Below, one piece after another: positions 3,530 through 58,317 of a stretch of 64,000 nucleotides of DNA. Both the position numbers and the translations under genes were made by a program. Positions within the stretch are counted from its first letter, which is position 1; every line of letters starts with the position of its first letter. The stretch comes from an uncultured Methanosarcinales archaeon (GTDB lineage: Archaea > Nanobdellota > Nanobdellia > Woesearchaeales > GW2011-AR9). The notes beneath the pieces were generated by a model. It was not told the origin of the DNA and ran no database searches. It was given only the letters and a program-made list of their open reading frames with translations. The stretch covers positions 10,491-74,490 of the forward strand of contig CAYHXT010000001.1 in assembly GCA_964360675.1 (NCBI GenBank), read 5' to 3'.

Positions 3530-3783
3530 GTATTTTAGGCTTGCTTTCCGGGGTTATATAAATTTTATTAAATAGGGTGCTTCATAATTCACAAATCTTT
3601 TAAATGAAATCAATTTGGTCTTACTATAACTTCAGATCAACTGAATGAAAAACAAACGCAGCATGGAGCACAAAGAAGTGGTAGCCGGTATTATTGAAAG
3701 TAATAATAAGACCAGAGACTAAATTGGAGTCTAAGAACGGCGATTGCCCATAGAAAAAGCATTGTTGAGGTATACAATTAAAG

Positions 3784-4497
3784 ATGGAAACATTCTACGA
3801 CCGATATAATTTTCCAGATGGAGGGGAGAAAAGAAAGGACTGTTGGAAAAAGCATTTAGCGAAGCATTTAGATTTTGATTCTTTAAAAAATAAAACGGTT
3901 TTAGATGTCGGCTGTGGAACTGGGACCATGAGCAAAATACTTTATGGTGCGGGAGCAGATATATATGCAATAGACCTGAGCAGAAAATCAATAGAATCTG
4001 TCAATAAAGCTTATCCGGAAATAAAAGCTAAAGTCGGCGATGCTCTTCACCTTGATTTTCCAGATAATCATTTCGATATTGTCATAAGCATTGGTGTGCT
4101 ACACCATACCCCTGACACTCACAAAGGTTTTGAAGAGTGTGTTAGAGTAACCAAATCTAAAGGACAATGTATCATAATGCTTTATTCTAAATGGCACTAC
4201 TACCCTCTGATATATAAATCATTTAAATTGTTTAGACAAAATAAAAAACCAGAAGATATGCCCAGATGGTTCATTAAATCTATCAAGAGATTTACAGAGT
4301 TCTATTACAAAGAGCCAAGAGATGATCAAGATGCAGTTCATCTAATTGCAGACCAGCTCTTCACTCCAATAGCTAAATTTCATTCAGAATTCGAGATAAA
4401 GAAATATATTAGGGAGATGGAATGCGAACTCATTTCAACATCAACTACATTTTTAGGGCAGCACAAAATATATAACTTATTAAAAAAAAAAGGTTAA
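3784..4497 (+). CDS. class I SAM-dependent methyltransferase
   Basis: Motif I VLDVGCGTG and an acidic motif II (IYAIDLS) are present. Length is 237 aa. Confidence 0.7.
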   Translation: METFYDRYNFPDGGEKRKDCWKKHLAKHLDFDSLKNKTVLDVGCGTGTMSKILYGAGADIYAIDLSRKSIESVNKAYPEIKAKVGDALHLDFPDNHFDIVISIGVLHHTPDTHKGFEECVRVTKSKGQCIIMLYSKWHYYPLIYKSFKLFRQNKKPEDMPRWFIKSIKRFTEFYYKEPRDDQDAVHLIADQLFTPIAKFHSEFEIKKYIREMECELISTSTTFLGQHKIYNLLKKKG

Positions 4498-4501
4498 ATA
4501 T

Positions 4502-5251
4502 TTGAACTTTATGATTACGTCTCAACGAGTGTCCATAGTAATTCCTTGTTATAATGAAGAAGAATCCATCCTAAACTTAACAAACCAGCTAAATTCCGCA
4601 GTAGCTGATTTAGAAAAAGATTACGAAACGGAACTTATTTTTGTTGATGACGGTTCTAAAGATAAAACTTACGAGCTTCTTAATAGCCATTATGAAAAAA
4701 ATAAGAATGTTAAAATAATCAAGCATGAAAGAAATTACAATCTGGGGGCTGCTTTAAGGACCGCGTTTAAATTTTCAACTGGAGACATCATCGTTCCATT
4801 AGATTGCGACTGTACTTTTCCTCCGGGAAAAATCAGAAATCTTCTTGAATTGTTGGACGAAGAAACCGATATTGTAAATGCTTCTCATTATCATCCACAG
4901 GGGACTTTAGATGATGTTCCGCTTTACCGGCGCATATTAAGCAAAACCGTTTCAGAAATGTACCGAGCGGTCTTAGGAAGAAGGGATATCTATACTTACA
5001 CCGGCATCTTTAGAGCTTACAAAAAAAATGTTCTGGAAAATATTAAATTTAAATCTAATGGGTTCCTTTGCAGCGCCGAGATATTAAGCTATGCTATTCT
5101 GAAAGGATATAAAATTAAAGAGTACCCCACCACCCTTTACACCAGGCAATATGGAAAATCAAGCATAAAATTATTCCGGGTAGTGATGAGCCATCTTAAC
5201 TTCATTTTCAAGTTAACTTATATCAAACTATTGAAACAAAAAAACCAATGA
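4502..5251 (+). CDS. GT2 family glycosyltransferase (DPM1/ArnC-like polyprenyl-phosphate sugar synthase type)
   Basis: N-terminus VSIVIPCYNEEESI, an FVDDGSKD motif and a DxD-like LDCD motif. Soluble, 249 aa. Confidence 0.7.
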   Translation: MNFMITSQRVSIVIPCYNEEESILNLTNQLNSAVADLEKDYETELIFVDDGSKDKTYELLNSHYEKNKNVKIIKHERNYNLGAALRTAFKFSTGDIIVPLDCDCTFPPGKIRNLLELLDEETDIVNASHYHPQGTLDDVPLYRRILSKTVSEMYRAVLGRRDIYTYTGIFRAYKKNVLENIKFKSNGFLCSAEILSYAILKGYKIKEYPTTLYTRQYGKSSIKLFRVVMSHLNFIFKLTYIKLLKQKNQ

Positions 5252-13689: not shown

Positions 13690-15957
13690 GTGTCTAAAGG
13701 CATGGAAAAAAAGGTAAAGATAATTGTAACTATAGGGCCATCTACTAATTCTGAAGAAGCGATGCTTAAGATTAAGGATAAAGGCGTTGATTTTGTCAGA
13801 GTAAATATGTCTCATTCTGATATCAATTACCTTAAGGATACCATTGCCTTAGCCAAGAAAGTAGGTCTCCCTTTTGTAATTGATACTGAAGGATCACAGG
13901 TAAGAACCGGCGAGCTGGGCACTTCTACAATCGAATTGGAAGATAATGAAGAAATTAAAATTTATAATCATAAGATAGTCGGAGATAAAGACAAAATCAA
14001 CTTAACTCCTTATTCGGTAGTAGACCAATTAGAAGTGGGCGATTTAATCCTAGTAGATTTTGACACCGCAATATTGCGTATTTCTGACACGGCTACAATC
14101 AATCGGGGATATGTCACTGCCAGAGCTATCACCGGGGGAATAATCGGCAAAAATAAAGCAGTGATAATTGATCCCATATCCAATAAAAAAATAATCCTTC
14201 CCACTCTTTCGGAGAAGGATTATCAATCTATCCAAGTGGGCCTGCAGGAAGGGATTGGGCATATTGCCGCATCATTTATGCGTTCGGGCAAAGCAGTAGA
14301 TGAAGTGCGTAAAGCTACCCAAAATACCATGAAGATAATCTCAAAAGTTGAATGTATAGATGCCTTAGAGAACATTAATGATATTATTCGTAAATCTGAC
14401 TACCTGCTGATTGACAGGGGAGATCTCAGCAAAGAGATCCCCATTGAAAAAATTCCGTTAACTCAGAAGATGATAATCAACAAGGCAAAGAAGTATGGTG
14501 TCGGCGTATTTGTGGCTACTAATCTTCTGGAAACCATGATAGATCATAAGAAACCTACCAGGGCGGAAGTACATGATGTCCTAAACACCATTGTAGATGG
14601 TGCGGGAGGATTAGCATTAGCTGCAGAGACAGCTATCGGAAAATATCCCCTGGCTTGTATTAACATGCTGAACAAAATAATAAAGCATGCTCAACAGGTT
14701 AATGTTGAAGAATTCAGGGATAAAGAAGATAAATTTGTAGAAAAACTTGAAAAGAGCAATTATCTGCTTGATTTCGATATGTCTTCTTCTTTAGTCGCTC
14801 CCCACGGCGGTAAATTAGTTGATCGTATGGTTAAAGAAATGCCTTCCTCGAAATATCTTCATTCCCTGCCAGTTATAAAATTAAATGAAAGTCATCGGCG
14901 CGATGTGGAACAAATAGCAATAGGTACTTACAGCCCGATAGATGGTTTTATGGGAAAAGAAGATTTCCAATCGGTATTAGACAGAATGAGGCTGGCTAAC
15001 GGCCTGGTGTGGCCAATGCCCATAACTCTTGATGTCCCGGAGGATCAAGCAGATATGCTGCTATTGGGTTCTGAAATAGCTTTATCTGGCGATGAGGGCG
15101 AAATCATTGCTTTATTAGCCCTTCAGGAAAAATATACTTTTGATAAATCAGAGACTGCTCAAAAATTATATGCTACTGACAGCTTAGATCATCCTGGAGT
15201 AAAGATGATTATGGGAATGAATTCGGTTCTTCTCGCCGGACCAATAACTTTACTTAAAAGGATCAGGAATGAATTTAAGGAATATGAAATAACCCCTAAA
15301 CAAGCCCGCCGCCTTTTTGAAGAAAGAGGATGGGAGAAAGTAGTAGGTTTCCACACCAGAAATGTGATACATCGCAGTCATGAATTCATCCAGATGGAAG
15401 CATTGCAGAAAAGCAATTGCGACGGCCTTTTTGTACATCCTGTAGTTGGCAAGAAGAAATCAGGCGATTTCAGTGCTAAATTCATAATCAAAGCTTATGA
15501 TCTGATGATAAAAGATTTTTATCCCAAGAATAAAGTTATTTTTGGGACGTTTTCAACTTATTCCAGATATGCCGGACCGAGAGAAGCGCTGTTCACGGCT
15601 TTATGCAGGAAAAATTTCGGATGCAGCCATTTCATCGTAGGCCGTGATCATACCGGAGTGGGAAATTTCTACCATCCCAAGGCATCTCATAATATTTTTG
15701 ACCGCTTTCCTGATTTAGGCATCGTACCTATTCGTTTTGATAATGTGTTCTATACTAAAAAAGAAGGGCGTTATATGCACGAGCAGGAATATCCAAATCA
15801 CCCTGAAGAGGATAAGCTGCTTATCAGCGGCACTCAGGCCAGAAAAATGTTCGAGAACGGAGAACTGCCGCCCGGCTGGTTCATGCGTCCAGAGATTTCG
15901 CAGTTAATTATTGGTGCGGTCAAAAATGGAGAAGAAGTTTTTGTAAAAGATGTTTAA
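13690..15957 (+). CDS. fusion: pyruvate-kinase-like barrel domain (N-terminal 350 aa) + ATP sulfurylase (sulfate adenylyltransferase-like) domain
   Basis: N-terminal part: IIVTIGPS...VDFVRVNMSHSD...FVIDTEGSQVRTG, LIDRGDLSKEIPIEKIPLTQKMII and PTRAEVHDVLNTIVDGAGGLALAAETAIGKYP, all pyruvate kinase motifs. C-terminal part: LVAPHGGKLVDRMV, GFHTRNVIHRSHEFIQ (QTRN..HRAH) and GRDHTGVG (GRDHAG), the ATP sulfurylase signatures. Confidence 0.7.
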   Translation: MSKGMEKKVKIIVTIGPSTNSEEAMLKIKDKGVDFVRVNMSHSDINYLKDTIALAKKVGLPFVIDTEGSQVRTGELGTSTIELEDNEEIKIYNHKIVGDKDKINLTPYSVVDQLEVGDLILVDFDTAILRISDTATINRGYVTARAITGGIIGKNKAVIIDPISNKKIILPTLSEKDYQSIQVGLQEGIGHIAASFMRSGKAVDEVRKATQNTMKIISKVECIDALENINDIIRKSDYLLIDRGDLSKEIPIEKIPLTQKMIINKAKKYGVGVFVATNLLETMIDHKKPTRAEVHDVLNTIVDGAGGLALAAETAIGKYPLACINMLNKIIKHAQQVNVEEFRDKEDKFVEKLEKSNYLLDFDMSSSLVAPHGGKLVDRMVKEMPSSKYLHSLPVIKLNESHRRDVEQIAIGTYSPIDGFMGKEDFQSVLDRMRLANGLVWPMPITLDVPEDQADMLLLGSEIALSGDEGEIIALLALQEKYTFDKSETAQKLYATDSLDHPGVKMIMGMNSVLLAGPITLLKRIRNEFKEYEITPKQARRLFEERGWEKVVGFHTRNVIHRSHEFIQMEALQKSNCDGLFVHPVVGKKKSGDFSAKFIIKAYDLMIKDFYPKNKVIFGTFSTYSRYAGPREALFTALCRKNFGCSHFIVGRDHTGVGNFYHPKASHNIFDRFPDLGIVPIRFDNVFYTKKEGRYMHEQEYPNHPEEDKLLISGTQARKMFENGELPPGWFMRPEISQLIIGAVKNGEEVFVKDV

Positions 15958-30109: not shown

Positions 30110-30230
30110 GAGTGGACAGCTTACCGGGGTTCCCGCACACTAATGCAGTAAAGCCCAGTACGGAGACGCGCTTAACTTCGGAGTTCGAAATGGGATCCGG
30201 TGAACCACGCCCCTATGACCGTCCATATGC
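30110..30230 (-). rRNA. rrf: 5S ribosomal RNA (orphan copy)
   Basis: The reverse complement reads ATGGACGGTCATAGGGGCGTGGTTCACCGGATCCCATTTCGAACTCCGAAGTTAAGCGCGTCTCCGTACTGGG...GGGAACCCCGGTAAGCTGTCCA. It contains the universal CCCAT(T/A)CCGAAC..GAAGTTAAGC loop B/C core. Helix I ends pair (TGGACGG / CTGTCCA). Confidence 0.7.
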
Positions 30231-33729: not shown

Positions 33730-35484
33730 GTGAAGATTTCTAAAACATTTGGATATTTGTTCTTAATTTTCCTGCTAGCTCTAATTTTACGATTTCTTGC
33801 GGCTTCCTATGTTGATGTGGGCACCGATGAGATGATTTATTCCATCATACCGCTGAATATCATTTCTGCCGGAAGGCTGGGAACGGTAGAGCAGTCTCCA
33901 TTATATTTTTATTTGGCCGATGTCGGATATACCTTTAGTGGAGGTTTAGGACAAATTACTGCTCGGTTGCCTTCCATTATTTTTGGTTCGCTGGCGGTTT
34001 TTTTAGTGTATCTGCTTTCCTTGGAAATGTTTGCTAATAAGAAAGCCGCTTACATCTCTTCGTTTTTGTGGGCGTTATCGGGATATGCGTTGCGGCACAA
34101 TGGTGAGATGGATATGTCTGCTTTTTTCTTTGCTTTATTGAGCCTGTTTTTGTTTATTCGCGCCCTTAAAACCGAATCGCCGAAGTTTTTTTATCTCTCA
34201 GCCATTAGTTTTGGTTTGGCAGTAATGATAAAAAATATTGTGGTCCTATTTGTTCCCGCTTATTTGTTGGTTTTTTGGCTGAAGCAACGAAAAGAAAAAG
34301 CTCTTTCCAAGTCTGCGCTAAAAACAATGATTATAAGCGTGGTTATTTTTCTAGCAGTGCTGATCCCTATATTTGCTTATAATTACCTCACTTATACTTA
34401 TACTAAAGAAGGAATAACCGATGTTTATTTTTCTACTATGCTGGGCATAGGCAAGACCGTACATGCGGGCATGGAGTCTAAACCCTGGGAGTTCTCAAGA
34501 GTATTGCATGTGACAAAAGAGATATTTACGCAATTATTTAAATGGGAAATAATCACTGTCATAGGCGGAGCTCTTGGTACTGCCCTCTGCCTGCGAAAAA
34601 ACAATTGGGTGAAATATAAAGAAGGTTTCCTGCTACTATGGATTTCGTTATTATCTCTTCCTGCTTACGTGGGTGGTTCGACAGCCAGTTCAACACATTA
34701 TTTGTGGGTCCCTATGGTTTTAAGTATTTTTGCTGGATACGGTATTTTTTCAGTTCATGAAATGATATTAAAGAGATTTTCTTTTAAGTATAGTTTGCAT
34801 CTAATTTTGTTAATAGCTATAATAATAAATGTCTTATTTTTCAGTTGGCTAGTACAGAAATATACTTCTGCCAGCACGGTTCCTTTATGGGAATTTGTGC
34901 ATGAAAACATTCCTGAAGATGCTATAGTGGTTATCGATCCGCGGATTTATAGAGGCGTTAATGCTTGGGTTTTTAACGACCGACATTATTTAGAAGGGGG
35001 GCATTTCCCATTGTTGCAGGAAGCTATTGAAAAATCCGCAGGAGCAAAGCAAGAAATCCCCCTTTATTATTTAGAATGCGGCAAGGATAGCGACTACATC
35101 TACTGTGGATGGAAGCCGGAAGATTTTGAAAGAATAAAAAGTGCCGGAGAACAGCTTAGCGCATTTTTAGTGCCGTCGATGCAAAAAGTTGCAGAGATAA
35201 AAACATCAACCCATTTCGTGCTTTACCAAGGGACTATCAATGCTCCGCGACGAGTTTACAACTTCATTGATGGAACCCATACGTTCTGGTTTTATCCGGT
35301 GGGTTGGAGGGGCGGGTCAGCAGTAGATGATTATACTGCCCGCGGAATTGGTGTTTTAGTAAATTTACTGGGGTTCCTAGTGCTCTATCTGGATCTGCTC
35401 TTAGCTTTGGCAGCGATACCGTTTGTTTTTTATCTAACGAATAAAAGGGGGGAAAATATTACTCCTCAAGAAAACAAACAATGA
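33730..35484 (+). CDS. GT-C superfamily membrane glycosyltransferase (ArnT/PMT-like), third paralog
   Basis: 584 aa. N-terminal polytopic region with an early acidic loop (DVGTDEM), a C-terminal soluble domain, then two further TM helices. Confidence 0.5.
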   Translation: MKISKTFGYLFLIFLLALILRFLAASYVDVGTDEMIYSIIPLNIISAGRLGTVEQSPLYFYLADVGYTFSGGLGQITARLPSIIFGSLAVFLVYLLSLEMFANKKAAYISSFLWALSGYALRHNGEMDMSAFFFALLSLFLFIRALKTESPKFFYLSAISFGLAVMIKNIVVLFVPAYLLVFWLKQRKEKALSKSALKTMIISVVIFLAVLIPIFAYNYLTYTYTKEGITDVYFSTMLGIGKTVHAGMESKPWEFSRVLHVTKEIFTQLFKWEIITVIGGALGTALCLRKNNWVKYKEGFLLLWISLLSLPAYVGGSTASSTHYLWVPMVLSIFAGYGIFSVHEMILKRFSFKYSLHLILLIAIIINVLFFSWLVQKYTSASTVPLWEFVHENIPEDAIVVIDPRIYRGVNAWVFNDRHYLEGGHFPLLQEAIEKSAGAKQEIPLYYLECGKDSDYIYCGWKPEDFERIKSAGEQLSAFLVPSMQKVAEIKTSTHFVLYQGTINAPRRVYNFIDGTHTFWFYPVGWRGGSAVDDYTARGIGVLVNLLGFLVLYLDLLLALAAIPFVFYLTNKRGENITPQENKQ

Positions 35485-35647
35485 TTTGTTTTCCACAAAA
35501 AGTGAAGAATTCACTTTTGTGCACAAGAAATGAGATTGTTTTCTCATTTCTGTGCTGAAAATAAGTATTTTCTTATTTTCATGCACAAATAGGATAATTT
35601 CCTATTTTGTGTGAGCAGAAATGCGGCATTTTTCACATTTCTTGCTC
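35471..35647. repeat. tandem array of five or six different near-perfect palindromes (28-34 bp each) in the leader of the 35692 operon
   Basis: Read directly: AAAACAAA-caatga-TTTGTTTT; CACAAAAAGTGAAgaaTTCACTTTTGTG; CACAAGAAATGAGAttgttTCTCATTTCTGTG; GAAAATAAGtatttCTTATTTTC; CACAAATAGGAtaatttCCTATTTTGTG; GCAGAAATGcggcatttttCACATTTCTTGC. Confidence 0.6.
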
Positions 35648-35691
35648 CATAACCTTTTTATATCATCGTTTCCGAATATTTAGGGGCCATT

Positions 35692-36135
35692 ATGAAAGAA
35701 ATTGAGAACGTGGAGTACAAAGGCAGGACTTTGGCCGTAGTTGTGCGGGCTCATGCCCTGCGCGAGCTTAAATCAGCAGGAAATAAAGTTTCCTTTGCCA
35801 CTCCAGAACACTTCCCCCTTCAAATGGGCATTCACGCCAGACTTAAAGGTGACATAGTTTCTGCCCACTTCCACAGGCCTTTTCAGGAGCTGAAAAATCT
35901 GCCAGTTCAAGAGTTTTTTCATGTTAAATCTGGAAAAGTCAAGATAGAATTATATGATGAGCGGGAAAATGATGCAAAAGTGTCGGAAATTATTGCTGAA
36001 GATGGCGACATGTTAATCTTAAACACCGGACACGGGATGACTTTTTTAGAAGATACTGAATTGGTGGAATTAAAGCAAGGGCCTTACAGAGGAAGAGAAG
36101 AAGAAAAAAGATTCGTTGGCGGGGTAAAAAAATGA
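35692..36135 (+). CDS. WxcM-like cupin (FdtA-type NDP-4-keto-6-deoxyhexose 3,4-ketoisomerase candidate)
   Basis: 147 aa single cupin barrel (HxH-like SAHFHRP, FHVKSGKVKIELYD) located directly upstream of a DegT aminotransferase. Confidence 0.5.
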   Translation: MKEIENVEYKGRTLAVVVRAHALRELKSAGNKVSFATPEHFPLQMGIHARLKGDIVSAHFHRPFQELKNLPVQEFFHVKSGKVKIELYDERENDAKVSEIIAEDGDMLILNTGHGMTFLEDTELVELKQGPYRGREEEKRFVGGVKK

Positions 36136-38432
36136 AATTTATCCCGGTATGTGAGCCGACGTTGAATGGAAATGAGCTTTCGTATATCATCGATGCGGTA
36201 AAATCAGGCTGGATATCTTCTTCAGGAAAATACCTTCAAGAGTTTGAAGACAAATTCAGCGCTTACTGCGGCGTGAAATATGGCATAAGCTGCGCTAATG
36301 GAACGCTAGCTATCCATCTTGCTTTATTAGCAGTGGGTATCAAGGAAGGTGATGAAGTTATTCTTCCGTCTTTTACCATGATTGGTTCCTGCAATCCGAT
36401 CGTGCAGATCGGAGCAAAGCCGGTATTCATAGATTCCGAATTGCAGACTTGGAATATAGACCCAGCGAAGATAGAAGAGAAAATCACCGCTAAAACCAAA
36501 GCCATAATGGTGGTTCATACCTATGGGCATCCGGTAGATATGGATGCGGTATCAGCTGTTGCCAGAAAACATAATCTGATAGTCATTGAAGACGCGGCCG
36601 AAGCGCATGGGGCTGAATACAAAAGCAGAAAAACCGGTTCTCTTGCAGATATTGCCGCTTTCAGTTTTTATGCTAATAAGATTATCACTTGTTTTCCCCC
36701 CTCCACAAAAATATTAATAGAACCCCCCAAGGGAAATAAGGGATCTAGTCGAATGAAAGATATTAAAGATTTAGAAGTTGGGGATAGTGTGCTTACTTAT
36801 GATATCGATACTTCTGCTAAGGAATATAAGAAAATAACGAGAACCTTTGAAAGAGAGTATCACGAGCAGATGGTTAACCTTTTTTTTTCAAATAATAATA
36901 AGTTATGTATGACTCCAAATCATCCGGTTTATGTTATTAATAAAGGCTGGGTGCCTGCAGAACTATTAAAGATTGGCGACGAGGTGATCCAATATAATTA
37001 TCGCGGACTTGCATACAAAGAAATGCATGCTGGCAAAACTTATGATTCTATCATGGGCAAGGAAGAAGCCGAAAAGAAGCGTAGAAACCATTCGCTGGCA
37101 ATAAAGCAAAGGCATAAGGACCCCAGATCCGGATATGCACGAATTGATAAGGTTTTAGTAGCTCTAAAAATCGGCAAAGCAAACAAAGGGAAAAAACGTT
37201 CTGAAGCTCAAAAAAAGAGATTACATAATTCTCAGTTATTGCGATGGGAAATGATGAGCCCAGATAAATACCAAGAATTCTGTAAAAAGATGAACCTAAT
37301 CAATTCCAATCCAGAAATTAGACTGAGAAAGAGTGCAGTTGCTAAAAAATTGGTCCAAGATCCGGAATATATTAAGCGTGTGAGTGCTGGTGTGAAAAAA
37401 GCTATGCAGAAAGAGTCTTATTGGAAAAATTATGCCAAGGGAATGAATTTTAAACCAAACAAACCGGAACAACTCCTCCTTACCTTTCTGGAGGCGCATT
37501 TCCCAGGAGAATTCGGATATAATGGCGACTATCGGTTAGGAGTAAGAATTGACAGGCTTATCCCAGACTTTGTACATATAAAAGGAAAAAAGAAAGTTAT
37601 AGACCTTCTCGGGAGTTATTGGCATACCAAAGATGAATTCTTTACACGGAGTAAAAGATATAAAAAATACGGCTATGATTGTCTTATTTTGTGGGAGCAA
37701 GAACTGAAAAATAAAGAAATGTTGAAGGAGAGAATTAAGACCTTTATTTATAACCCAAATATCAAGATTGTGAAAGTCGCAAAAATCACCACAAAAGAGT
37801 ATACTGGTAAAGTTTATAATCTAGAAACTGAAAAAAACCATAATTATTTTGCGCATGGCATTCTAGTTCATAACTGTGGAGAAGGGGGCATGGTCGTTAC
37901 CAATAATGAGCAGTGGGCAGAAAGAGCGCGAAAATTGCGAAACCATTTCTTTGGCGAGCCGCGATTTTTACATCAGGAAGTAGGATATAATTATCGGCTC
38001 ACTAATATGCAGGCAGCCATCGGATTGGCGCAGCTGGAAAAGATAGAATACTATGTTGATTCCAGAAGGAGAAATGCCCAATTGTACAATTCCTTGCTGA
38101 AAGATGTTCCCGGAATAATCCTGCCTCCAGAAGCATCCTGGGTCAAGAATGTGTATTGGATGTACGGCGTTTTATTAAATAATGATTTTCCATTGACCAT
38201 GCCGCAATTGAGAGAAGAGTTGCAGAAGAAAGGCGTTGAAACGAGAACTTTTTTTATAGGCATGCATAAACAGCCGGCATACAAAGAGCTGGGCGTTAAC
38301 GGCGAATTTCCTAATGCAGAATATCTAGGAGAGAATGGTTTTTATCTGCCGTCTTCCAGCCATTTGACTGAGGAACAGATTAGGTATATTACGGCGACCA
38401 TTAAGCAAATTTATGAGGAGCATAAAAAATGA
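36132..38432 (+). CDS. DegT/DnrJ/EryC1/ArnB-family PLP-dependent sugar aminotransferase, interrupted by a 395-aa intein
   Basis: N-extein: MKFIPVCEPTLNGNELSYIIDAVKSGWISSSGKYLQEFEDKFSAYCG...AAFSFYANKIIT. C-extein: CGEGGMVVTNNEQWAERARKLRNH. ArnB-like enzymes have the contiguous motif SF(H/Y)xxKxIT-C-xEGG. Combined extein length is 371 aa, the normal family size. Confidence 0.8.
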   Translation: MKFIPVCEPTLNGNELSYIIDAVKSGWISSSGKYLQEFEDKFSAYCGVKYGISCANGTLAIHLALLAVGIKEGDEVILPSFTMIGSCNPIVQIGAKPVFIDSELQTWNIDPAKIEEKITAKTKAIMVVHTYGHPVDMDAVSAVARKHNLIVIEDAAEAHGAEYKSRKTGSLADIAAFSFYANKIITCFPPSTKILIEPPKGNKGSSRMKDIKDLEVGDSVLTYDIDTSAKEYKKITRTFEREYHEQMVNLFFSNNNKLCMTPNHPVYVINKGWVPAELLKIGDEVIQYNYRGLAYKEMHAGKTYDSIMGKEEAEKKRRNHSLAIKQRHKDPRSGYARIDKVLVALKIGKANKGKKRSEAQKKRLHNSQLLRWEMMSPDKYQEFCKKMNLINSNPEIRLRKSAVAKKLVQDPEYIKRVSAGVKKAMQKESYWKNYAKGMNFKPNKPEQLLLTFLEAHFPGEFGYNGDYRLGVRIDRLIPDFVHIKGKKKVIDLLGSYWHTKDEFFTRSKRYKKYGYDCLILWEQELKNKEMLKERIKTFIYNPNIKIVKVAKITTKEYTGKVYNLETEKNHNYFAHGILVHNCGEGGMVVTNNEQWAERARKLRNHFFGEPRFLHQEVGYNYRLTNMQAAIGLAQLEKIEYYVDSRRRNAQLYNSLLKDVPGIILPPEASWVKNVYWMYGVLLNNDFPLTMPQLREELQKKGVETRTFFIGMHKQPAYKELGVNGEFPNAEYLGENGFYLPSSSHLTEEQIRYITATIKQIYEEHKK
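36690..37874 (+). mobile_element. intein (Hint domain with embedded DUF559/Vsr-like PD-(D/E)XK endonuclease and NUMOD3-like DNA-binding repeats)
   Basis: Begins with Cys (CFPPSTKIL...). Block B TxxH-like NHPVY. Ends ...GILVHN followed by +1 Cys. Internal KRRNHSLAIKQRHK and GKKRSEAQKKRL (NUMOD3-like). IPDFVHIKGKKKVIDLLGSYWH...YGYDCLILWE is a DUF559/Vsr-like pattern. Confidence 0.7.
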
Positions 38433-39145
38433 AAATAAAAAGCGATGTTTCAGTGGTCCTCCCCTCGTATAATGAACGAGAAAATATTGTGGAAGCGATT
38501 GAACGGATTTCTGAAGCGGTCGGTTCTCGACTGAAAGAGATTGTCATTGTGGATGATAATAGTCCCGATGAGACCTGGAAAGTTGTTGAGGAATACGGGC
38601 ATCCTAAAGTACGGCTTATTCGGCGGATGGGGGAGAAAGGGTTGGCTTCGGCATTAGATGATGGAATACAAGCAGCAGAAGGGAGTATCGTTGTTTGGAT
38701 GGATTGTGATTTGGGGCTTTCTCCGGAAGAGATTCCTTCCTTAGTAAATCAATTAGATAACCATGATGTGGCGATAGCTTCACGATATGTTAAAGGGGGA
38801 AAAGATCCACGGCCATTTTTTAGAGTATCATTAAGTATAGCAATTAATGCTTTTTGTATCCTTTTATTGGGTTGGGGTGTGCGTGACTACACGTCTGGAT
38901 TTGCTGCGGTAAAGAAAGATGTTTTTGATAAGATATCCTTCTCTCGTTATGGTTTTGGGGAATATTTCATAGATTTTGCTTATAAGGCAAAAAAAAATAA
39001 ATTTAGGATCATTGAAGTCCCCTGTGCATACAATATTCGTCTAGGGGGCGTGTCCAAATCTGATGGAGATATTCGAACATTGTTGGGCTTAGGGAAGGAT
39101 TATGGTCTTAGGGCAATAAGATTAAGACTTGGACTGCAAAAATGA
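38429..39145 (+). CDS. GT2 glycosyltransferase (ArnC/DPM1-like polyprenyl-phosphate aminosugar synthase candidate)
   Basis: VSVVLPSYNERENI, VDDNSPDET and a DxD-like DCD motif. 238 aa. ATGA overlap with the upstream gene. Confidence 0.7.
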   Translation: MKIKSDVSVVLPSYNERENIVEAIERISEAVGSRLKEIVIVDDNSPDETWKVVEEYGHPKVRLIRRMGEKGLASALDDGIQAAEGSIVVWMDCDLGLSPEEIPSLVNQLDNHDVAIASRYVKGGKDPRPFFRVSLSIAINAFCILLLGWGVRDYTSGFAAVKKDVFDKISFSRYGFGEYFIDFAYKAKKNKFRIIEVPCAYNIRLGGVSKSDGDIRTLLGLGKDYGLRAIRLRLGLQK

Positions 39146-39525
39146 ATCTTAGCTCGGAGTTAAAGAAAGATTTATTCCGCTATGTCAAATTTTTATTCGG
39201 CGGCGGGTTAAGCCTGCTGTTGAATCTGCTTATAACTTACTCGCTGACGGAATTCCTGCAGTTATGGCATATGCTTTCATTCGGCATCGCGTTAGGATGC
39301 GAAATCCTGTTTCTTTTTGTATATCATTCTTATGTCACTTTCAGGAAGGATGGCAAATTTTTGGTTTTTGCTTTAGTGGTCTTGTTTATAAGCGGCCTGA
39401 ACTGGATGTTTGTATATCTGCTGACGGAATTACTGGGTGTTCCTTATTTATATGCGATTGTAGTTTCTGCTGCGGCGATCTCTGTGCTGAACTATGGATT
39501 AAATAAGAAGATCGTGTTCAAATGA
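39142..39525 (+). CDS. GtrA-family small membrane protein (lipid-linked sugar flippase candidate)
   Basis: 127 aa with 4 TM helices. KFLFGGGLS N-terminal motif typical of GtrA. Coupled to the upstream GT2. Confidence 0.6.
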   Translation: MNLSSELKKDLFRYVKFLFGGGLSLLLNLLITYSLTEFLQLWHMLSFGIALGCEILFLFVYHSYVTFRKDGKFLVFALVVLFISGLNWMFVYLLTELLGVPYLYAIVVSAAAISVLNYGLNKKIVFK

Positions 39526-40429: not shown

Positions 40430-42673
40430 ATGGGAATTGTCTCTGAAAAAACCATGTCCGAAGTTCCTCAGACTTATACCACCAGAACTACCTGCAGGGT
40501 ATGCTATTCTCCCAAATTGGTTCCTCTTTTTTCTTTAGGGATGCAGTATATCAACAATTTCATCAATAAAGAAGATTTGCATAAGTGCGGGAGAGCTCCT
40601 CTGGAGATGGTCTTGTGCGAAAATTGCACTTTAGTGCAGCTGCGGCATACCGCCCCTCAGGAATTGCTGTATGCACGCTTCTACTGGTATAAGTCCGGAA
40701 TCACCGATACCATGAAGAAAGCTCTGCGGGACATTACCGAAAAAACAGAGAAAATGTTTAATCTTAAGGCCGGCGATGTAGTGCTGGACATAGGCTCCAA
40801 TGACGGAACTCTGTTGCGTTCTTTTCAGGTTCCCGGCTTAGTTACCGTAGGCGTTGAACCCGCAAACAATCTGGCAGAGGAAGGGAGCAAGGGCATAACT
40901 CATTTCATCCACGATTTCTGGACGTTAGACAGTTATTGGAAGACAGTGGGAAGGAAAGCGAAAGTGGTGACTGCCATCGGCATGTTTTATGATATGGAAG
41001 ATCCTAATCAGTTTGTCGCTGATGCTGCGAATGCCTTGACTGATGATGGTGTTTTTATTGCGCAGTTGATGTGCTTAAAGAATATGCTGGACAGCAATGA
41101 TGTCGGAAATATCTGCCATGAGCATCTGGAATATTATTCTTTCAAGTCGCTGGAATATTTATTCAACAAGAATGGATTGGAAATAATTGATGTTGAAATC
41201 AACTATGTAAATGGCGGGAGCTACCGCATTTACGGCAGGAAGATTGGTGCGCATACGCGGCCGGCGGAAGGGGCAGCAGAAAGGATACAGAAAGTAAGAG
41301 ATTCCGAAAAAGGATTTGAGCGGAAAGAAGTGTATTTAGATTTCTTCAACCGCCTTGAAGAGAACAAGAAAAGGTGTGTTGATTTTATCAAGCAAGAAAC
41401 CGCTAAAGGCAAGAAAGTATGGGTATATGGTGCTTCTACCAAAGGCAATGTAATATTACAATATTATGGTTTGGGTCCTGAATTGATCCAAGGCGCTTCT
41501 GAAAGAAGCTCATTCAAGTGGGGGAAATATACCGTCGGTTCGATGATCCCTATTTATTCAGAAGAAGAGGCGCGAAAAGCGCAGCCGGATTATTTTTTAG
41601 TCCTTCCCTATGCATTCTTTAATGAATTTTACGATAGAGAAGAAGAGTGGCGAAAGAAAGGCGGGAAATTTATTGTGCCGCTGCCAGAGTTCAGGATAGC
41701 TCCTGCGAAAAAAGGGCTGGTGCTTGGAATTACCGGACAAGACGGCTCGTATTTGGCTGAAGTATTGCTTTCTAAAGGTTACGAAGTTCATGGATTTATC
41801 CGGCGTTCCGCTACCGGCAATACCAAGAATATCGATCATTTGATGGATAAAATTACTTTGCATAGGGGCGATTTGGCTGATGCGACTTCCCTGTATAGAG
41901 TCATAGCCAAAGTCATGCCTGATGAGATTTACAACGAAGCGGATCAGGATCATGTCAGCTGGAGTTATGACGGCGTAGGATACAGCTGCGATATTACTGG
42001 GGCGGCAGTCGGCAGAATTTTAGAGACTATCAAGCAGATTAATCCTAAGATAAAATATTTCCAGCCGGTTTCTTCTAACATGTTTGGCAAGGCAGACAAT
42101 CCGCAGACGGAAGAAACTTATCTGCGTCCGCAAAGCCCCTATGCCTGCGCCAAAGCATTCGCTTATTTACTTTGCAGATATTATCGCGATGTCTTTGGCA
42201 TGCATGTATCTACAGGAATCTTTTACAATCATGAATCTCCGCGAAGGACGGAGGAATATGTTACTCGTAAGATAACCATGGGCGCCGCCAGAATTAAATT
42301 GGGGCTGCAGCAGAAATTATCTCTCGGCAATCTTGATCTGAAGATCGATTTTGGCTATGCGCGGGAATACATGGAAGCGGCGTGGAGCATCATGCAATTG
42401 GATAAGCCGGACGATTTTATCATCTGTACTGAAGAATTACATTCGGTCAAAGAATGGCTGGAAGAGGCGTTTAATGCATTAGGATTGAAAGCTTCTGATT
42501 ATGTAGAGTTTGATCCAAGGTTTGCCAGGCCTTCCACTACTTCGCCTTTGTTGGGAAGCAATTTCAAGGCGCGGGAGAAGTTCGGATTTGATCCAAAGGT
42601 TAGATTTAAAGAATTAGTGAAATTGATGGTAGAGCATGATCTGAAGCTGGTGGGAGAAGAGAGGAAGAAGTGA
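40430..42673 (+). CDS. fusion: NDP-hexose C-methyltransferase (TylCIII-like, Zn-ribbon + class I MTase) + GDP-mannose 4,6-dehydratase
   Basis: N-terminus: TCRVCYSPKLVPLF...CENCTLVQL (4-Cys zinc ribbon of C3-methyltransferases), then VLDIGSNDGTL. C-terminal 330 aa: GLVLGITGQDGSYLAEVLLSKGYEVHGFIRRS and later YACAKAFAY (YxxxK), the Gmd hallmarks. Confidence 0.65.
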   Translation: MGIVSEKTMSEVPQTYTTRTTCRVCYSPKLVPLFSLGMQYINNFINKEDLHKCGRAPLEMVLCENCTLVQLRHTAPQELLYARFYWYKSGITDTMKKALRDITEKTEKMFNLKAGDVVLDIGSNDGTLLRSFQVPGLVTVGVEPANNLAEEGSKGITHFIHDFWTLDSYWKTVGRKAKVVTAIGMFYDMEDPNQFVADAANALTDDGVFIAQLMCLKNMLDSNDVGNICHEHLEYYSFKSLEYLFNKNGLEIIDVEINYVNGGSYRIYGRKIGAHTRPAEGAAERIQKVRDSEKGFERKEVYLDFFNRLEENKKRCVDFIKQETAKGKKVWVYGASTKGNVILQYYGLGPELIQGASERSSFKWGKYTVGSMIPIYSEEEARKAQPDYFLVLPYAFFNEFYDREEEWRKKGGKFIVPLPEFRIAPAKKGLVLGITGQDGSYLAEVLLSKGYEVHGFIRRSATGNTKNIDHLMDKITLHRGDLADATSLYRVIAKVMPDEIYNEADQDHVSWSYDGVGYSCDITGAAVGRILETIKQINPKIKYFQPVSSNMFGKADNPQTEETYLRPQSPYACAKAFAYLLCRYYRDVFGMHVSTGIFYNHESPRRTEEYVTRKITMGAARIKLGLQQKLSLGNLDLKIDFGYAREYMEAAWSIMQLDKPDDFIICTEELHSVKEWLEEAFNALGLKASDYVEFDPRFARPSTTSPLLGSNFKAREKFGFDPKVRFKELVKLMVEHDLKLVGEERKK

Positions 42674-55172: not shown

Positions 55173-56213
55173 ATGGTTCTTGAGAATCTAGCTATGGACT
55201 TTTTAAAAATTTCCTGCCCCATCTGCGGTTCTGATGAACATTCGTTAGTCTCCAACAAGGGCCAGTTCAATATCAAATTATATGCCTCGTTATGCAAACA
55301 ATGCGGATTGATGTATCTAAATCCAAGATGGTCTAAAAGTTCTTATGACCACTTTTATGCCAACCTTTATGACCACTTTTATAGGACTTCTAAATCTAAA
55401 AAAAATTTTCCGGAATTGTATTACGGTAAAATCAAACAGATCCACGGGAGGATGCTGAAAGAGGGCTTATTCCCTGCTAAAATAGAAAATGCGCTGGATA
55501 TAGGCAGCGGAGAAGGGTGGCCGCTGCTGTATCTTAAGGAAAATCATGAAAAAAGCGGGAAAAATACCCCTCTAAATCTTCATGCCATCGAACCTTCTTC
55601 ACGTTGTCTTAAAACTCTGAAAGAATTCGGAATAAATGTGATCTCTAACGATGTAGATTCTGATTGGCATAAAAAATATAAACATAAATTTGACTTCATA
55701 ATTATGAGGCATGTCCTAGAGCATTTCATGGATCCAGTCTCTGTGCTGAAAAAAGTATCTTCCTCATTAACAAAAGACGGTCTGGTGTATATCGCAGTGC
55801 CTAATTCGATGAATCCACAATTGCCGTTAAACAAGACTTTCTTCAGGGCAGTGCACACTTTTTATTTTTCCAGGATCTCTTTGCATAACGTAATAAATCT
55901 TTCAAATCTGGAGATTATGCACTTATCAGCGAGTCCTAAAGATAGTCCTCATGAGATATATGCCCTGTGCAGAAAGTCAAGAAAAGCGGTTCCTCCGGTA
56001 ATCCTAAATGATGAGTTTTTTTTACAGAAAGAAGTGTTATCTAATTCATATAAAAAAGAAAAATCATTTAAGTTTAAGATTGATAATTCCATAAATAATT
56101 TAAAGAACCATACTAAAAGAAGGATTATAAAATTAATCCCTTCCGGGATAAAAAAGAGCAGTTATTTAAAAAAGGCGATTGGAATTTATCATCGTACAAA
56201 AATTATTAATTAA
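55173..56213 (+). CDS. SAM methyltransferase with N-terminal zinc ribbon
   Basis: CPICGSDEH...CKQCG, then LDIGSGEGW. 346 aa. Confidence 0.55.
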   Translation: MVLENLAMDFLKISCPICGSDEHSLVSNKGQFNIKLYASLCKQCGLMYLNPRWSKSSYDHFYANLYDHFYRTSKSKKNFPELYYGKIKQIHGRMLKEGLFPAKIENALDIGSGEGWPLLYLKENHEKSGKNTPLNLHAIEPSSRCLKTLKEFGINVISNDVDSDWHKKYKHKFDFIIMRHVLEHFMDPVSVLKKVSSSLTKDGLVYIAVPNSMNPQLPLNKTFFRAVHTFYFSRISLHNVINLSNLEIMHLSASPKDSPHEIYALCRKSRKAVPPVILNDEFFLQKEVLSNSYKKEKSFKFKIDNSINNLKNHTKRRIIKLIPSGIKKSSYLKKAIGIYHRTKIIN

Positions 56214-56235
56214 TCAAGTGGTAAGGGAGAGCGTA

Positions 56236-58317
56236 ATGAAAAAAATAGTTTGTGTTATTCCTGCGAGAGGCGGTTCTAAAGGAATTCCGAGGAAGAATAT
56301 CAAATCATTAGCTGGAAAACCTTTGATAAGTTATAATATCTCGGCTTCTAAGAATTCCGGGCATATAATTGAAACTTATGTTTCTACCGACGATCAAGAA
56401 ATAGCTGAAATTTCCAGTAATTTTGGCGCGAAGATTATTGATAGGCCGAAGGAATTTGCGACAGATACCGCAAGCAGCGAATCAGCATTGCTACATTTCG
56501 CAGAAAATGTAGATTTTGATGTGCTGGTCTTCCTGCAATGCACTTCTCCATTGACCAAAACCGAGGATATCGATGGGGCGATTGAAAAATATCTTTTCGG
56601 AAATTATGATTCTGTTCTTTCTGTCTGTGAAGATAGAGGGGGATTTCTTTGCGGCGGTTTTACTTGGGATGAAGATGGAAATTCAGTGAATTACGACTTT
56701 AAGAATAGAAAGCGCCGACAGCAGAATAAAAGATTCTATCGTGAAAATGGGGCGATTTATGTATTCAGCAAAGAAGGATTATTAAAACACAAAAATCGGC
56801 TGCATGAGAAGGTGGGTCTTTACGTAATGCCTTCGTTAAGATCTTTCGAGATAGATGAACCTGAAGATTTTCTAACTATTGAAAAATTATTTACAATTGA
56901 CAAAAGGCAGGATAATGTTAACAATAATAATTTCCATATGATAAAGATGGTCATTTTTGACTGCGACGGGGTACTTACTGATGGTTCAGTATATATGGAT
57001 CCTGACGGAAAGGAAACTTTGAGGTTCTCAAGAATAGACGGCCATGGAATAGGCATGTTAAATAAAGCAGGGTACATACTGGGTATCATCAGTTCTGAAA
57101 ATTCCGAAATCATCCGAAAAAGGGCTGAAAAGTTGAATATATCCGAAGTGTTTTTAGGAATTAAAGATAAATTAAAAATATATCAAGAATTAAAGGACAA
57201 ATATAATCTAAAAGATGGGGAAATATGTTACTGCGGAGACGACCTTTCTGATATGGAGATATTAAAGAAAGTAGGCCTGTCCTGCTGTCCATCCAATTCT
57301 CAACCAGAAGTTAAAGAGATATGTACTTTTGTTTCAGAATACGAAGGAAGCAATGGTTTTGTAAGGCAAGTATCAAATCTTATTTTAAAGAGCATAAAAT
57401 CAAAAGAGATATTAAATAAAGGTGATAAAGAAAAAATGAAAACACTAAAAATAAATGATGTGGAAATCTCAAATGAAAGCAAGCCTTTTTTCATCGCTGA
57501 AATAGGCATCAATCATAATGGTTCGATGGATCTTGCAAAAAAAATGATTGATCTGGCAGTCATTACCGGCGTAAACGCAGTTAAGTTTCAAAAAAGAACG
57601 GTAGAACTATGTGTGCCGGACAACGTTAAAAATTCCATGCGAGAAACCCCTTGGGGAAAAATGACTTATTTTGATTACAAAAAGAAAATTGAATTTGAAG
57701 AAGAAGAATACAAAGAAATAGACCGTTATTGCAAGGAGAAAGGAATACTTTGGACCGCTTCTGTCTGGGATATACCCAGCCTTGAGTTTATCGAAAGATT
57801 CAACGTGGCTTTCCATAAAATACCTTCTGCGTTATTAACCCATAAAGATTTATTATTAAAAATCAAAGAAACTGGAAAACCAGTTATCCTTTCCACAGGC
57901 ATGAGCACTGAAGAGGAAGTCTTAAAAGCAGTATCTTTATTTGGGGAGAATTATCCTTTGGCGATATTACATTGTAATTCCGGCTATCCGGCTAAAGAAG
58001 AAGAACTTAATTTAAATTACATACTGAATTTAAAACAAATGTTCCCAAATAACATCATCGGTTATAGCGGACATGAGAGGGGAATCTCAGCCACTTTGGT
58101 TGCTGCTACGCTTGGCGCAAAGATATTAGAAAGGCATATAACTTTAGATAGGTCTATGTGGGGCACTGATCAGGCCGCATCTATCGAATTCGATGGATTA
58201 AGGAGATTAGTAAGGGATTTAAATAGTTTAAATATCTGGTTTGGAAACGGAATTAAAACCGTAACAGAAACCGAAAAAACAGTTAGAGATAAATTAAGAA
58301 ATGTCAACACATTGTGA
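56236..58317 (+). CDS. tri-domain fusion: CMP-nonulosonate cytidylyltransferase (NeuA-like) + HAD-IIIA phosphatase (KdsC-like) + nonulosonic acid synthase (NeuB-like)
   Basis: MKKIVCVIPARGGSKGIPRKNIKSLAGKPLI (NeuA/KdsB motif). MVIFDCDGVLTDG and a later GDDLSD (HAD motifs). FFIAEIGINHNGSMDLAKKMID (NeuB N-terminus). AGGGAG SD upstream of the chosen ATG. Confidence 0.7.
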   Translation: MKKIVCVIPARGGSKGIPRKNIKSLAGKPLISYNISASKNSGHIIETYVSTDDQEIAEISSNFGAKIIDRPKEFATDTASSESALLHFAENVDFDVLVFLQCTSPLTKTEDIDGAIEKYLFGNYDSVLSVCEDRGGFLCGGFTWDEDGNSVNYDFKNRKRRQQNKRFYRENGAIYVFSKEGLLKHKNRLHEKVGLYVMPSLRSFEIDEPEDFLTIEKLFTIDKRQDNVNNNNFHMIKMVIFDCDGVLTDGSVYMDPDGKETLRFSRIDGHGIGMLNKAGYILGIISSENSEIIRKRAEKLNISEVFLGIKDKLKIYQELKDKYNLKDGEICYCGDDLSDMEILKKVGLSCCPSNSQPEVKEICTFVSEYEGSNGFVRQVSNLILKSIKSKEILNKGDKEKMKTLKINDVEISNESKPFFIAEIGINHNGSMDLAKKMIDLAVITGVNAVKFQKRTVELCVPDNVKNSMRETPWGKMTYFDYKKKIEFEEEEYKEIDRYCKEKGILWTASVWDIPSLEFIERFNVAFHKIPSALLTHKDLLLKIKETGKPVILSTGMSTEEEVLKAVSLFGENYPLAILHCNSGYPAKEEELNLNYILNLKQMFPNNIIGYSGHERGISATLVAATLGAKILERHITLDRSMWGTDQAASIEFDGLRRLVRDLNSLNIWFGNGIKTVTETEKTVRDKLRNVNTL

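Follow-up and report, generated by a model that had tools for sequence, protein, structure and literature searches.

Introduction

Why does a gene for a sugar aminotransferase in an archaeal genome encode a protein of 766 amino acids (aa), when the two aminotransferase parts of that protein together make up only 371? The gene lies in a stretch of 64,000 nucleotides (nt), here called the window, from GenBank assembly GCA_964360675.1, an uncultured archaeon that GTDB places in the Woesearchaeales. The contig, Hain_H52_02um_R2_157 in ENA (64,845 bp), comes from Hainich groundwater and has about 21x coverage. The open reading frame (ORF) occupies 36132..38432 (window coordinates are on the + strand unless marked otherwise) and specifies a precursor of 88.1 kDa, recognized from the list of ORFs and from matches to PF01041 and PF14890. 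A 395-aa insert at 36690..37874 (precursor aa 187-581, 46.4 kDa, pI 9.7) separates its two aminotransferase parts. We conclude, with a probability of about 0.88, that this insert is a class 1 intein carrying a homing nuclease in the gene of a sugar-nucleotide aminotransferase.

An original prediction, made from the sequence letters, had proposed such an intein in this 766-aa ORF. The coordinates that it gave are exact, with the two PF01041 halves lying on either side and both PF14890 and TIGR intein models matching the insert. Does the insert have all the parts of a splicing intein? What kind of nuclease does it carry? And has it moved between genes, or has it simply been inherited with this one?

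Results and discussion

An aminotransferase split beside its cofactor lysine

The precursor matches PF01041 (DegT_DnrJ_EryC1) with 393.6 bits (E 1.2e-117) in two stretches, the first of which ends at position 179 of the 360 in the profile. The N-extein (36132..36689, aa 1-186) ends in FSFYANK183IIT, and the C-extein (37875..38432, stop codon included) opens with the +1 Cys of CGEGG. With a caret for each junction, the split point reads FSFYANK(183)IIT^C...HN^CGEGG. Joined, the exteins form a protein of 371 aa with a computed mass of 41.7 kDa, the closest solved relative of which is the GDP-perosamine synthase of Caulobacter (3BN1; E 1.5e-99). The alignment to 3BN1, which together with a check of the codons sets the extein boundary, is gapless through aafsfyankiit^cgeggmvvtn and places FSFYANK183 opposite fsffgnk. 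The seamless extein junction that had been predicted is borne out by this alignment and by an intein-free syntenic allele of the same length as the joined exteins.

Judged by its PF01041 match and SFxxxK motif, the protein is a DegT/DnrJ/EryC1/StrS aminotransferase. It does not reach equivalog level for LegC (TIGR04181, 332 against a cut-off of 420) or for PseC (267 against 423.5). In the conserved SFxxxK motif the lysine is K183 (codon AAG, 36678-36680), and from what is known of the DegT family we take it to be the residue that forms the Schiff base with pyridoxal 5'-phosphate (PLP). The intein is inserted four residues past K183, so that the precursor would most likely be inactive until spliced. 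On this ground the original proposal, that the enzyme works only after splicing, is a reasonable one.

A complete class 1 splicing domain

The insert alone scores 82.5 bits against PF14890 Intein_splicing (cut-off 35.8). It also passes the models for the two intein ends, with 31.4 bits for intein_Nterm TIGR01445 (cut-off 24.5) and 30.1 bits for intein_Cterm TIGR01443 (cut-off 15.6). A lack of any Hint match had been named beforehand as one result that would speak against an intein; the Hint models are instead all above their cut-offs. The class 1 signature of blocks A, B and G and the +1 residue is complete: Cys1 (TGT, 36690-36692), T75-P-N-H78 (36912-36923), His394-Asn395 (37869-37874) and Cys+1 (TGT, 37875-37877). 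Every element of the boundary chemistry that had been proposed can therefore be located, the block originally read as 'NHPVY' being that of T75-P-N-H78.

The splicing domain is in two parts. The N-terminal part (36690..37001, intein aa 1-104) holds blocks A and B, and the C-terminal part (37752..37874, intein aa 355-395) holds blocks F and G and ends in GILVHN. In an AlphaFold model built on a 29-sequence alignment, with a mean predicted local distance difference test score of 85.9, the strands of the Hint fold are formed by intein aa 7-102 and 358-394. The intein reading frame runs for 1185 nt without a frameshift or stop codon, and tblastn in all six frames found no second copy of the Hint or nuclease parts in the window. 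Among 15 full-length DegT alleles, which include the P0189-P0200 set, L008, P0002, P0201 and P0203, the residues C1, T75, H78, H394 and N395 do not vary, and all of the DegT intein alleles seen have Cys at +1.

A Vsr-like nuclease in the frame of the intein

As had been predicted, the precursor contains no LAGLIDADG or HNH motif that Pfam can match, even at E <= 1. The two parts of the splicing domain enclose a basic helical region (37002..37454, intein aa 105-255, 26% Lys+Arg) and a Vsr-like or EDxHD-type nuclease domain (37455..37751, intein aa 256-354). The residues that mark this domain, in intein numbering, are E260 (in PNKPE), P292-D293-F294, D305, W311-H312 and W335-E336.

A profile of the nuclease domain matches I-Bth0305I (3R3P) at E 1e-10 and Vsr of Escherichia coli (1CW0) at E 1.2e-5, and the best solved relatives by profile and fold are I-Bth0305I, the DUF559-like protein 3HRL and Vsr. 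The PDF motif aligns to the RPDF motif of Vsr, which contains Asp51, YWH to F67-W68-H69 and W(E/D) to the Vsr catalytic motif; the roles of Asp51 and His69 in Vsr catalysis are taken from the literature (PMC2677866). YWH of the window intein is also aligned to the position mutated as H213A in 3R3P. When the module is aligned across 20 sequences, E19, P51-D52-F53, G67, H71 and G87 are invariant, with W70, W94 and E97 close to it. The window nuclease retains E260, D293, G308, W311, H312, G328, W335 and E336. In the 15 DegT alleles, E260, D293, W311, H312 and W335 do not vary and position 336 holds either E or D; like the invariance of the splicing residues, this points to purifying selection. 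In the AlphaFold model, intein aa 258-354 form an alpha/beta nuclease domain. Family profile and predicted fold together thus support a Vsr-like/EDxHD nuclease.

The region before the nuclease (intein aa 105-252) is modelled as helices, with low confidence at aa 145-169. It had been described as carrying NUMOD3-like basic repeats. The basic character is real, but the NUMOD3 repeats are the weakest part of that prediction, with indirect support from BLASTP, which pairs one degenerate stretch (intein aa ~157-178) with a NUMOD3 motif in P0017, a free-standing relative; intein aa 105-260 match no Pfam NUMOD model, NUMOD3 included, even at E <= 10. The helical arm is presumed to bind DNA, and its content of Lys+Arg fits this role.

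Intein-free alleles and the empty site

The best 120 homologues of the exteins are all without an intein. They reach 86% identity and are either about 372 aa long or about 530 aa long and fused to NUDIX; those that are named come from metagenome-assembled genomes (MAGs) of Nanoarchaeota, Woesearchaeota or Diapherotrites. Going by these names, the source of the window is probably a DPANN archaeon. P0080, P0085, P0086, P0094 and others, at 65-72% identity, have the NUDIX fusion.

One intein-free allele, P0051, has 85% aa and 78% nt identity to the window gene, and the contigs that contain it come from three wells (H52, H41 and H51) in the same aquifer. The orthologous locus has the same gene order as the window: NTP-transferase/PMM, CSD, LPG_synthase_TM, PMT_2, a 147-aa protein, DegT, a family 2 glycosyltransferase (GT2), GtrA and a methyltransferase-epimerase fusion. 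The intein-free syntenic gene (6001..7116 in L004) is 1116 nt long, exactly the spliced length of the window gene, and its empty site reads AAGATCATCACC^ACCGGCGAGGGC.

The +1 residue is Thr (ACC) in this empty allele and Cys (TGT) in the window; the 120 intein-free homologues have Thr in 85 cases, Ser in 16 and Cys in 11. Within 12 nt on each side of the junction, the window matches the distant intein-bearing L008 at 21 of 24 positions, as against 16 of 24 for the close empty allele. Small as these numbers are, they hint at co-conversion of the junction flanks.

A family of inteins in many hosts

How widespread are such inteins? An exhaustive HMMER search over 1.84 billion cluster representatives returned 73 that match the window intein at E <= 1e-30, mostly across residues 1-395. 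GTDB was scanned with an alignment of six inteins (A3). Ten of the best-scoring intein-bearing representatives (P0189-P0200) were scanned with Pfam; in every one the host is DegT and the split falls at the same position of the profile. The pattern K-x-x-(T/S)^C...HN^C-G-E-G-G is present in 15 of 15 DegT alleles. Among these is L008, from a Micrarchaeota MAG, with an intein about 54-55% identical to that of the window. Relatives found with the window intein are of two types. The first are full-length inteins with 31-45% identity over about the whole length. The second are free-standing proteins that have only the C-terminal two thirds; some of them are named 'very-short-patch-repair endonuclease', and some match NUMOD3 and DUF559.

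DegT is the commonest host of the family. Other hosts are Gmd and epimerases (P0006, P0012, P0204, P0222), ThyX, a primase, a RecA/KaiC-like protein, an E1 dehydrogenase and a cupin, as well as GT2, a radical-SAM enzyme, a GHMP kinase, UvrD, TMEM260-like O-mannosyltransferases, a methyltransferase and a DnaE with four inteins. The latter (P0188, 2724 aa) joins DnaE (Pol III alpha) to a UDG domain and has four Intein_splicing stretches; its aa 1716-2109 are 39% identical to the window intein over the full length. The original prediction regarded a glycan-pathway PLP enzyme as an odd place for an intein. This does not hold for the present family, since DegT is its commonest host, Gmd, GT2, GHMP kinase and O-mannosyltransferase-like proteins are hosts too, and an intein in the sugar-nucleotide enzyme gene gmd of Thermosynechococcus is already published (PMC9403480). 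What is unusual is the in-frame fusion of a Vsr/EDxHD nuclease in a contiguous intein. Glycan-pathway genes appear as frequent intein targets in the sequences seen here from DPANN archaea, the Candidate Phyla Radiation (CPR) and viral metagenomes.

Some of the hosts may be viral. The DegT allele P0002 (contig L088) and the Gmd allele P0006 (L090) have as neighbours HNH, integrase, Sipho_Gp157 and NADAR genes and many small unannotated ORFs, and these contigs look like viral sequences carrying glycan genes. On IMG/VR contigs, ThyX and a P-loop NTPase are hosts of the same intein, and many relatives of the nuclease are encoded there as free-standing proteins. A search of 50,697 deposited phage genomes found no nuclease-bearing relative, PHROGs has no family for the nuclease region, and a fold search of BFVD returned solely generic Hint-containing viral proteins.

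Other inteins were met in the same searches. A second, more distant subfamily of contiguous inteins (L120, L143, L145 and L146 from IMG/VR, and L014 1612..4755 from a Patescibacteria MAG of the same aquifer) has an in-frame zinc-finger, a helical region and a Vsr-like nuclease (KNPDF...VIEVGD.YFWHT...), and ends in LVSN^C or LVHN^C. Its hosts are viral helicases and a UvrD/PcrA helicase. Two DegT proteins have inteins at other sites: that of P0047 stands just before HSFQAVK and has a different, PD-(D/E)xK-like middle (VIPDFIAMKDGKVIAVEVES), and that of P0229 is at profile position 222 or just before. In a Bathyarchaeota MAG (L015, VBBA01000139.1), a terminase-like ORF at 2530..4716 has an intein with a low-complexity in-frame middle. 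An ORF in another frame inside that intein (3266..4270) looks LAGLIDADG-like (LLGDFSL..., WFMDDGS) and would be an out-of-frame homing nuclease.

Mobility and a proposed homing cycle

Has the intein been inherited with its gene? In 12 of 14 DegT alleles the intein is more similar to that of the window than the exteins are. The identities are 52% for the intein against 32% for the exteins in P0190, 43% against 24% in P0002 and 55% against 46% in L008. Because intein identity exceeds extein identity while the closest exteins (86%) have no intein, the pattern is that expected from horizontal homing into divergent DegT genes and not from co-inheritance. The intein also differs from its exteins in GC content, 0.36 against 0.43.

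At the same DegT site there are mini-inteins from which the nuclease has been deleted, P0003 (174 aa) and P0013 (151 aa); in the former, short pieces of the sequence that flanked the nuclease are still left. Four further members of the family (P0011, P0014, P0016 and P0032) have decayed nuclease motifs. The mini-inteins and the decayed motifs would represent later stages of a homing cycle.

We envisage the following course of events. The 88-kDa precursor would be translated as a single chain, from which the Hint domain would then excise the 46-kDa intein. Splicing would proceed by an N-S acyl shift at Cys1, transesterification to Cys+1, cyclization of Asn395 assisted by His394, and an S-N shift that joins the exteins. 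The product would be an aminotransferase of 41.7 kDa that reads SFYANKIIT-CGEGG. The excised intein, or the precursor itself, would bind through its helical arm to the DNA coding for the conserved NK(I/L)(I/L)T-(T/S/C)-GEGG. By analogy with I-Bth0305I, the Vsr-type active site would cut the intein-free DegT allele, with His as general base and an Asp-bound Mg2+. Repair of the cut allele from the intein-bearing copy would spread the element. Site-specific cutting of this kind has indirect support in the sporadic distribution of the intein and in the mismatch between intein and extein identities. For I-Bth0305I itself, this use of His and Mg2+ was proposed and a broad specificity reported (PMC3239194). 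If the window nuclease were as broad, this would fit the entry of the element into DegT genes as divergent as they are, at only 24-50% identity.

A wider reading can be built on the range of hosts. The family would be a previously undescribed end product of the model of Dassa et al. (2009), and would shuttle between viruses and DPANN/CPR hosts, with genes for surface glycans (DegT, Gmd, GT2, O-mannosyltransferase-like) as its preferred route. We offer it tentatively and think it rather unlikely to hold in full. If it were true, viral copies would cut and convert host alleles, as in phage marker exclusion, and the spread of the intein would be linked to a conflict between virus and host over the glycans of the cell surface.

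Weighing the alternatives

Several observations weigh against an intein with a homing nuclease that is mobile in this lineage. The window intein alone scores 14.0 bits (E 0.049) against DUF559 PF04480, under the cut-off of 20.6, and it has no Vsr or NUMOD3 match in Pfam. The nuclease assignment consequently depends on the family profile and the predicted structure. Relatives score higher against PF04480: the allelic intein of L008 has 20.3 bits, and P0222 (27.9) and P0035 (27.6) pass the cut-off. On these scores the window nuclease is related to DUF559, yet is not a scoring member of PF04480; the DUF559/Vsr-like module that had been predicted is real by family profile and fold and weak on the single sequence. 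In addition, the window has Asp305 where most of the family have Glu, a conservative change. Finally, we found no intein-free allele above 86% aa identity, and every contig of the window population carries the intein.

The last two of these points would also suit an intein that still splices but whose nuclease no longer homes in this lineage, a vertically inherited relic on its way to becoming a mini-intein. The decayed motifs and nuclease-deleted alleles elsewhere in the family would suit it as well. We consider this unlikely for the window copy, since all of the invariant nuclease residues are intact, the 1185 nt are without a frameshift or stop, and P0002, which has the same Asp, retains the other nuclease motifs (PDF, WH, WE). 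Might the intein instead have been co-opted by its host? Conditional splicing is established for other archaeal inteins, and splicing controlled, for example, by Cys1-Cys+1 redox could gate the aminotransferase and with it the modification of surface glycans. With the insert inside the active-site motif, the precursor would be expected to be inactive, and Cys is at positions 1 and +1 in every DegT intein allele, whereas Thr or Ser is the usual +1 residue of intein-free alleles. However, Cys+1 is simply the nucleophile of this intein, and the sporadic distribution, multi-host spread and conserved nuclease are what a selfish element predicts, which makes such a switch improbable.

Less probable again is a fixed domain, with the Hint-like and nuclease modules kept in the mature enzyme and no splicing. 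The residues for splicing are all conserved, the 120 nearest homologues are without the insert, mini-intein variants occur at the same site, and an insert retained there would disrupt the PLP-binding motif. A fixed, non-splicing domain at this site in homologues had been the other contrary outcome foreseen; the homologues have sporadic inteins in its place, nuclease-deleted alleles among them. Could an assembly chimera or a sequencing artefact have joined an intein gene to a DegT gene? A near-identical contig, L003, is indeed full of frameshifts, though its coverage is merely 2.5x. The frameshifted copy on it (P0001) was considered as a decaying allele and rejected; with 2.5x coverage and every gene on the contig broken, it is treated as noise. 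The identical 766-aa protein is present on 8 contigs, one of which was found in 10 samples, and coverage of the window contig is about 21x. Compared with the empty allele, the insert keeps the frame and is exact to the codon, and its architecture recurs in 15 or more independent DegT alleles, so an artefact is scarcely credible. A class 1 intein with a homing nuclease is the reading that we retain.

The surrounding genes

The DegT gene stands in a run of glycan genes. Upstream are a PMT_2-family glycosyltransferase (33730..35484) and a 147-aa protein without a family match (35692..36135), the stop codon of which overlaps the DegT start. Downstream are a GT2 glycosyltransferase (38429..39145) and, following it, a GtrA-like membrane protein (39142..39525). 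The order of these five genes (33730..39525) is conserved in the intein-free locus L004. Because their stop and start codons overlap, the GT2 and GtrA-like genes are probably co-transcribed with the DegT gene. By analogy, the group resembles the logic of ArnB, ArnC, flippase and ArnT, in which an aminosugar would be made, loaded on lipid, flipped and transferred. A scan for promoters and terminators near the gene, which does not cover archaeal promoters, gave counts equal to the shuffled expectation.

Elsewhere in the window, a lone 5S rRNA gene (30111..30226, - strand, 64.5 bits) lies amid the 64-kb run of glycan-biosynthesis genes, and Rfam and tRNA scans found no tRNA and no rRNA other than 5S. 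A 755-aa protein (13690..15957) joins a pyruvate-kinase barrel to PUA_2 and ATP-sulfurylase domains, an unusual combination that is possibly related to sulfated glycans. Two large fusion proteins are also encoded. A 747-aa protein (40430..42673) fuses Methyltransf_13/14 to an epimerase/GDP_Man_Dehyd domain, and a 712-aa protein (56179..58317) combines cytidylyltransferase, HAD and NeuB domains.

Comparison with known systems

In the searchable literature, which does not extend to most subscription journals, where an earlier report may lie, we found neither an in-frame Vsr/EDxHD domain in an intein, nor an intein in DegT, nor any mention of this family. Nothing relevant was found there on inteins in DegT/perosamine synthase or in DPANN archaea. 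The 'DUF559-containing gene' of PMC9403480 was considered as a prior report of the architecture; its wording is ambiguous and could not be taken so. As far as this literature goes, Vsr-like nucleases near inteins are solely free-standing, with split inteins, or antisense, and in-frame fusion in a contiguous intein is a new architecture. DegT is a new intein host, and the family, which is metagenomic, was previously undescribed; this is not a new principle. For annotation, it means that a DegT gene product of about 750 aa is to be read as a precursor with an intein and not as a novel fusion enzyme. The large intact family offers natural material on how nuclease and splicing domains adapt to each other. 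It may also supply tools, in the form of new compact homing nucleases and of inteins able to use Cys+1.

Canonical inteins such as PI-SceI and PI-PfuI carry a LAGLIDADG or HNH nuclease, whereas that of the window belongs to a different class. The intein in gmd of Thermosynechococcus (PMC9403480) is similar in having a host from a nucleotide-sugar pathway, but the enzyme and the site differ.

The first tie between Vsr-like nucleases and inteins came from the 'fractured genes' of Dassa et al. 2009 (PMC2677866), in which Vsr-like nuclease genes lie between the halves of split inteins. The nuclease type and the association with an intein are shared with the window. There, however, the nuclease has its own start and stop and the host gene is broken in two, while the window has one continuous ORF. 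The fractured hosts are DNA synthesis and repair enzymes, mostly of phage, and not a glycan-pathway PLP enzyme in a cellular genome. Steps IIa/IIIa of the model in that paper have a free-standing nuclease integrating in frame into an intein, and the window intein fills this predicted gap for the Vsr/EDxHD class. The full inteins of actinobacteriophages described by Gosselin, Arsenault & Gogarten (bioRxiv 10.1101/2025.01.02.630785) carry VSR-like endonuclease genes in antisense, and their in-frame middle is unstructured or has nothing recognizable; in the window, the intein polypeptide itself includes the nuclease, read in frame.

Closest in its nuclease is I-Bth0305I (2011, PMC3239194; PDB 3R3P), from a group I intron, which defined the EDxHD family. 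It is a free-standing ORF in an intron of phage recA and has NUMOD2 and helix-turn-helix motifs, whereas the window nuclease is an in-frame intein domain and the window intein matches no NUMOD model directly. The two are alike in having the DNA-binding region (presumed in the window intein) on the N-terminal side and the nuclease on the C-terminal side, and in the conservation of the Glu, Asp, His and acidic residues.

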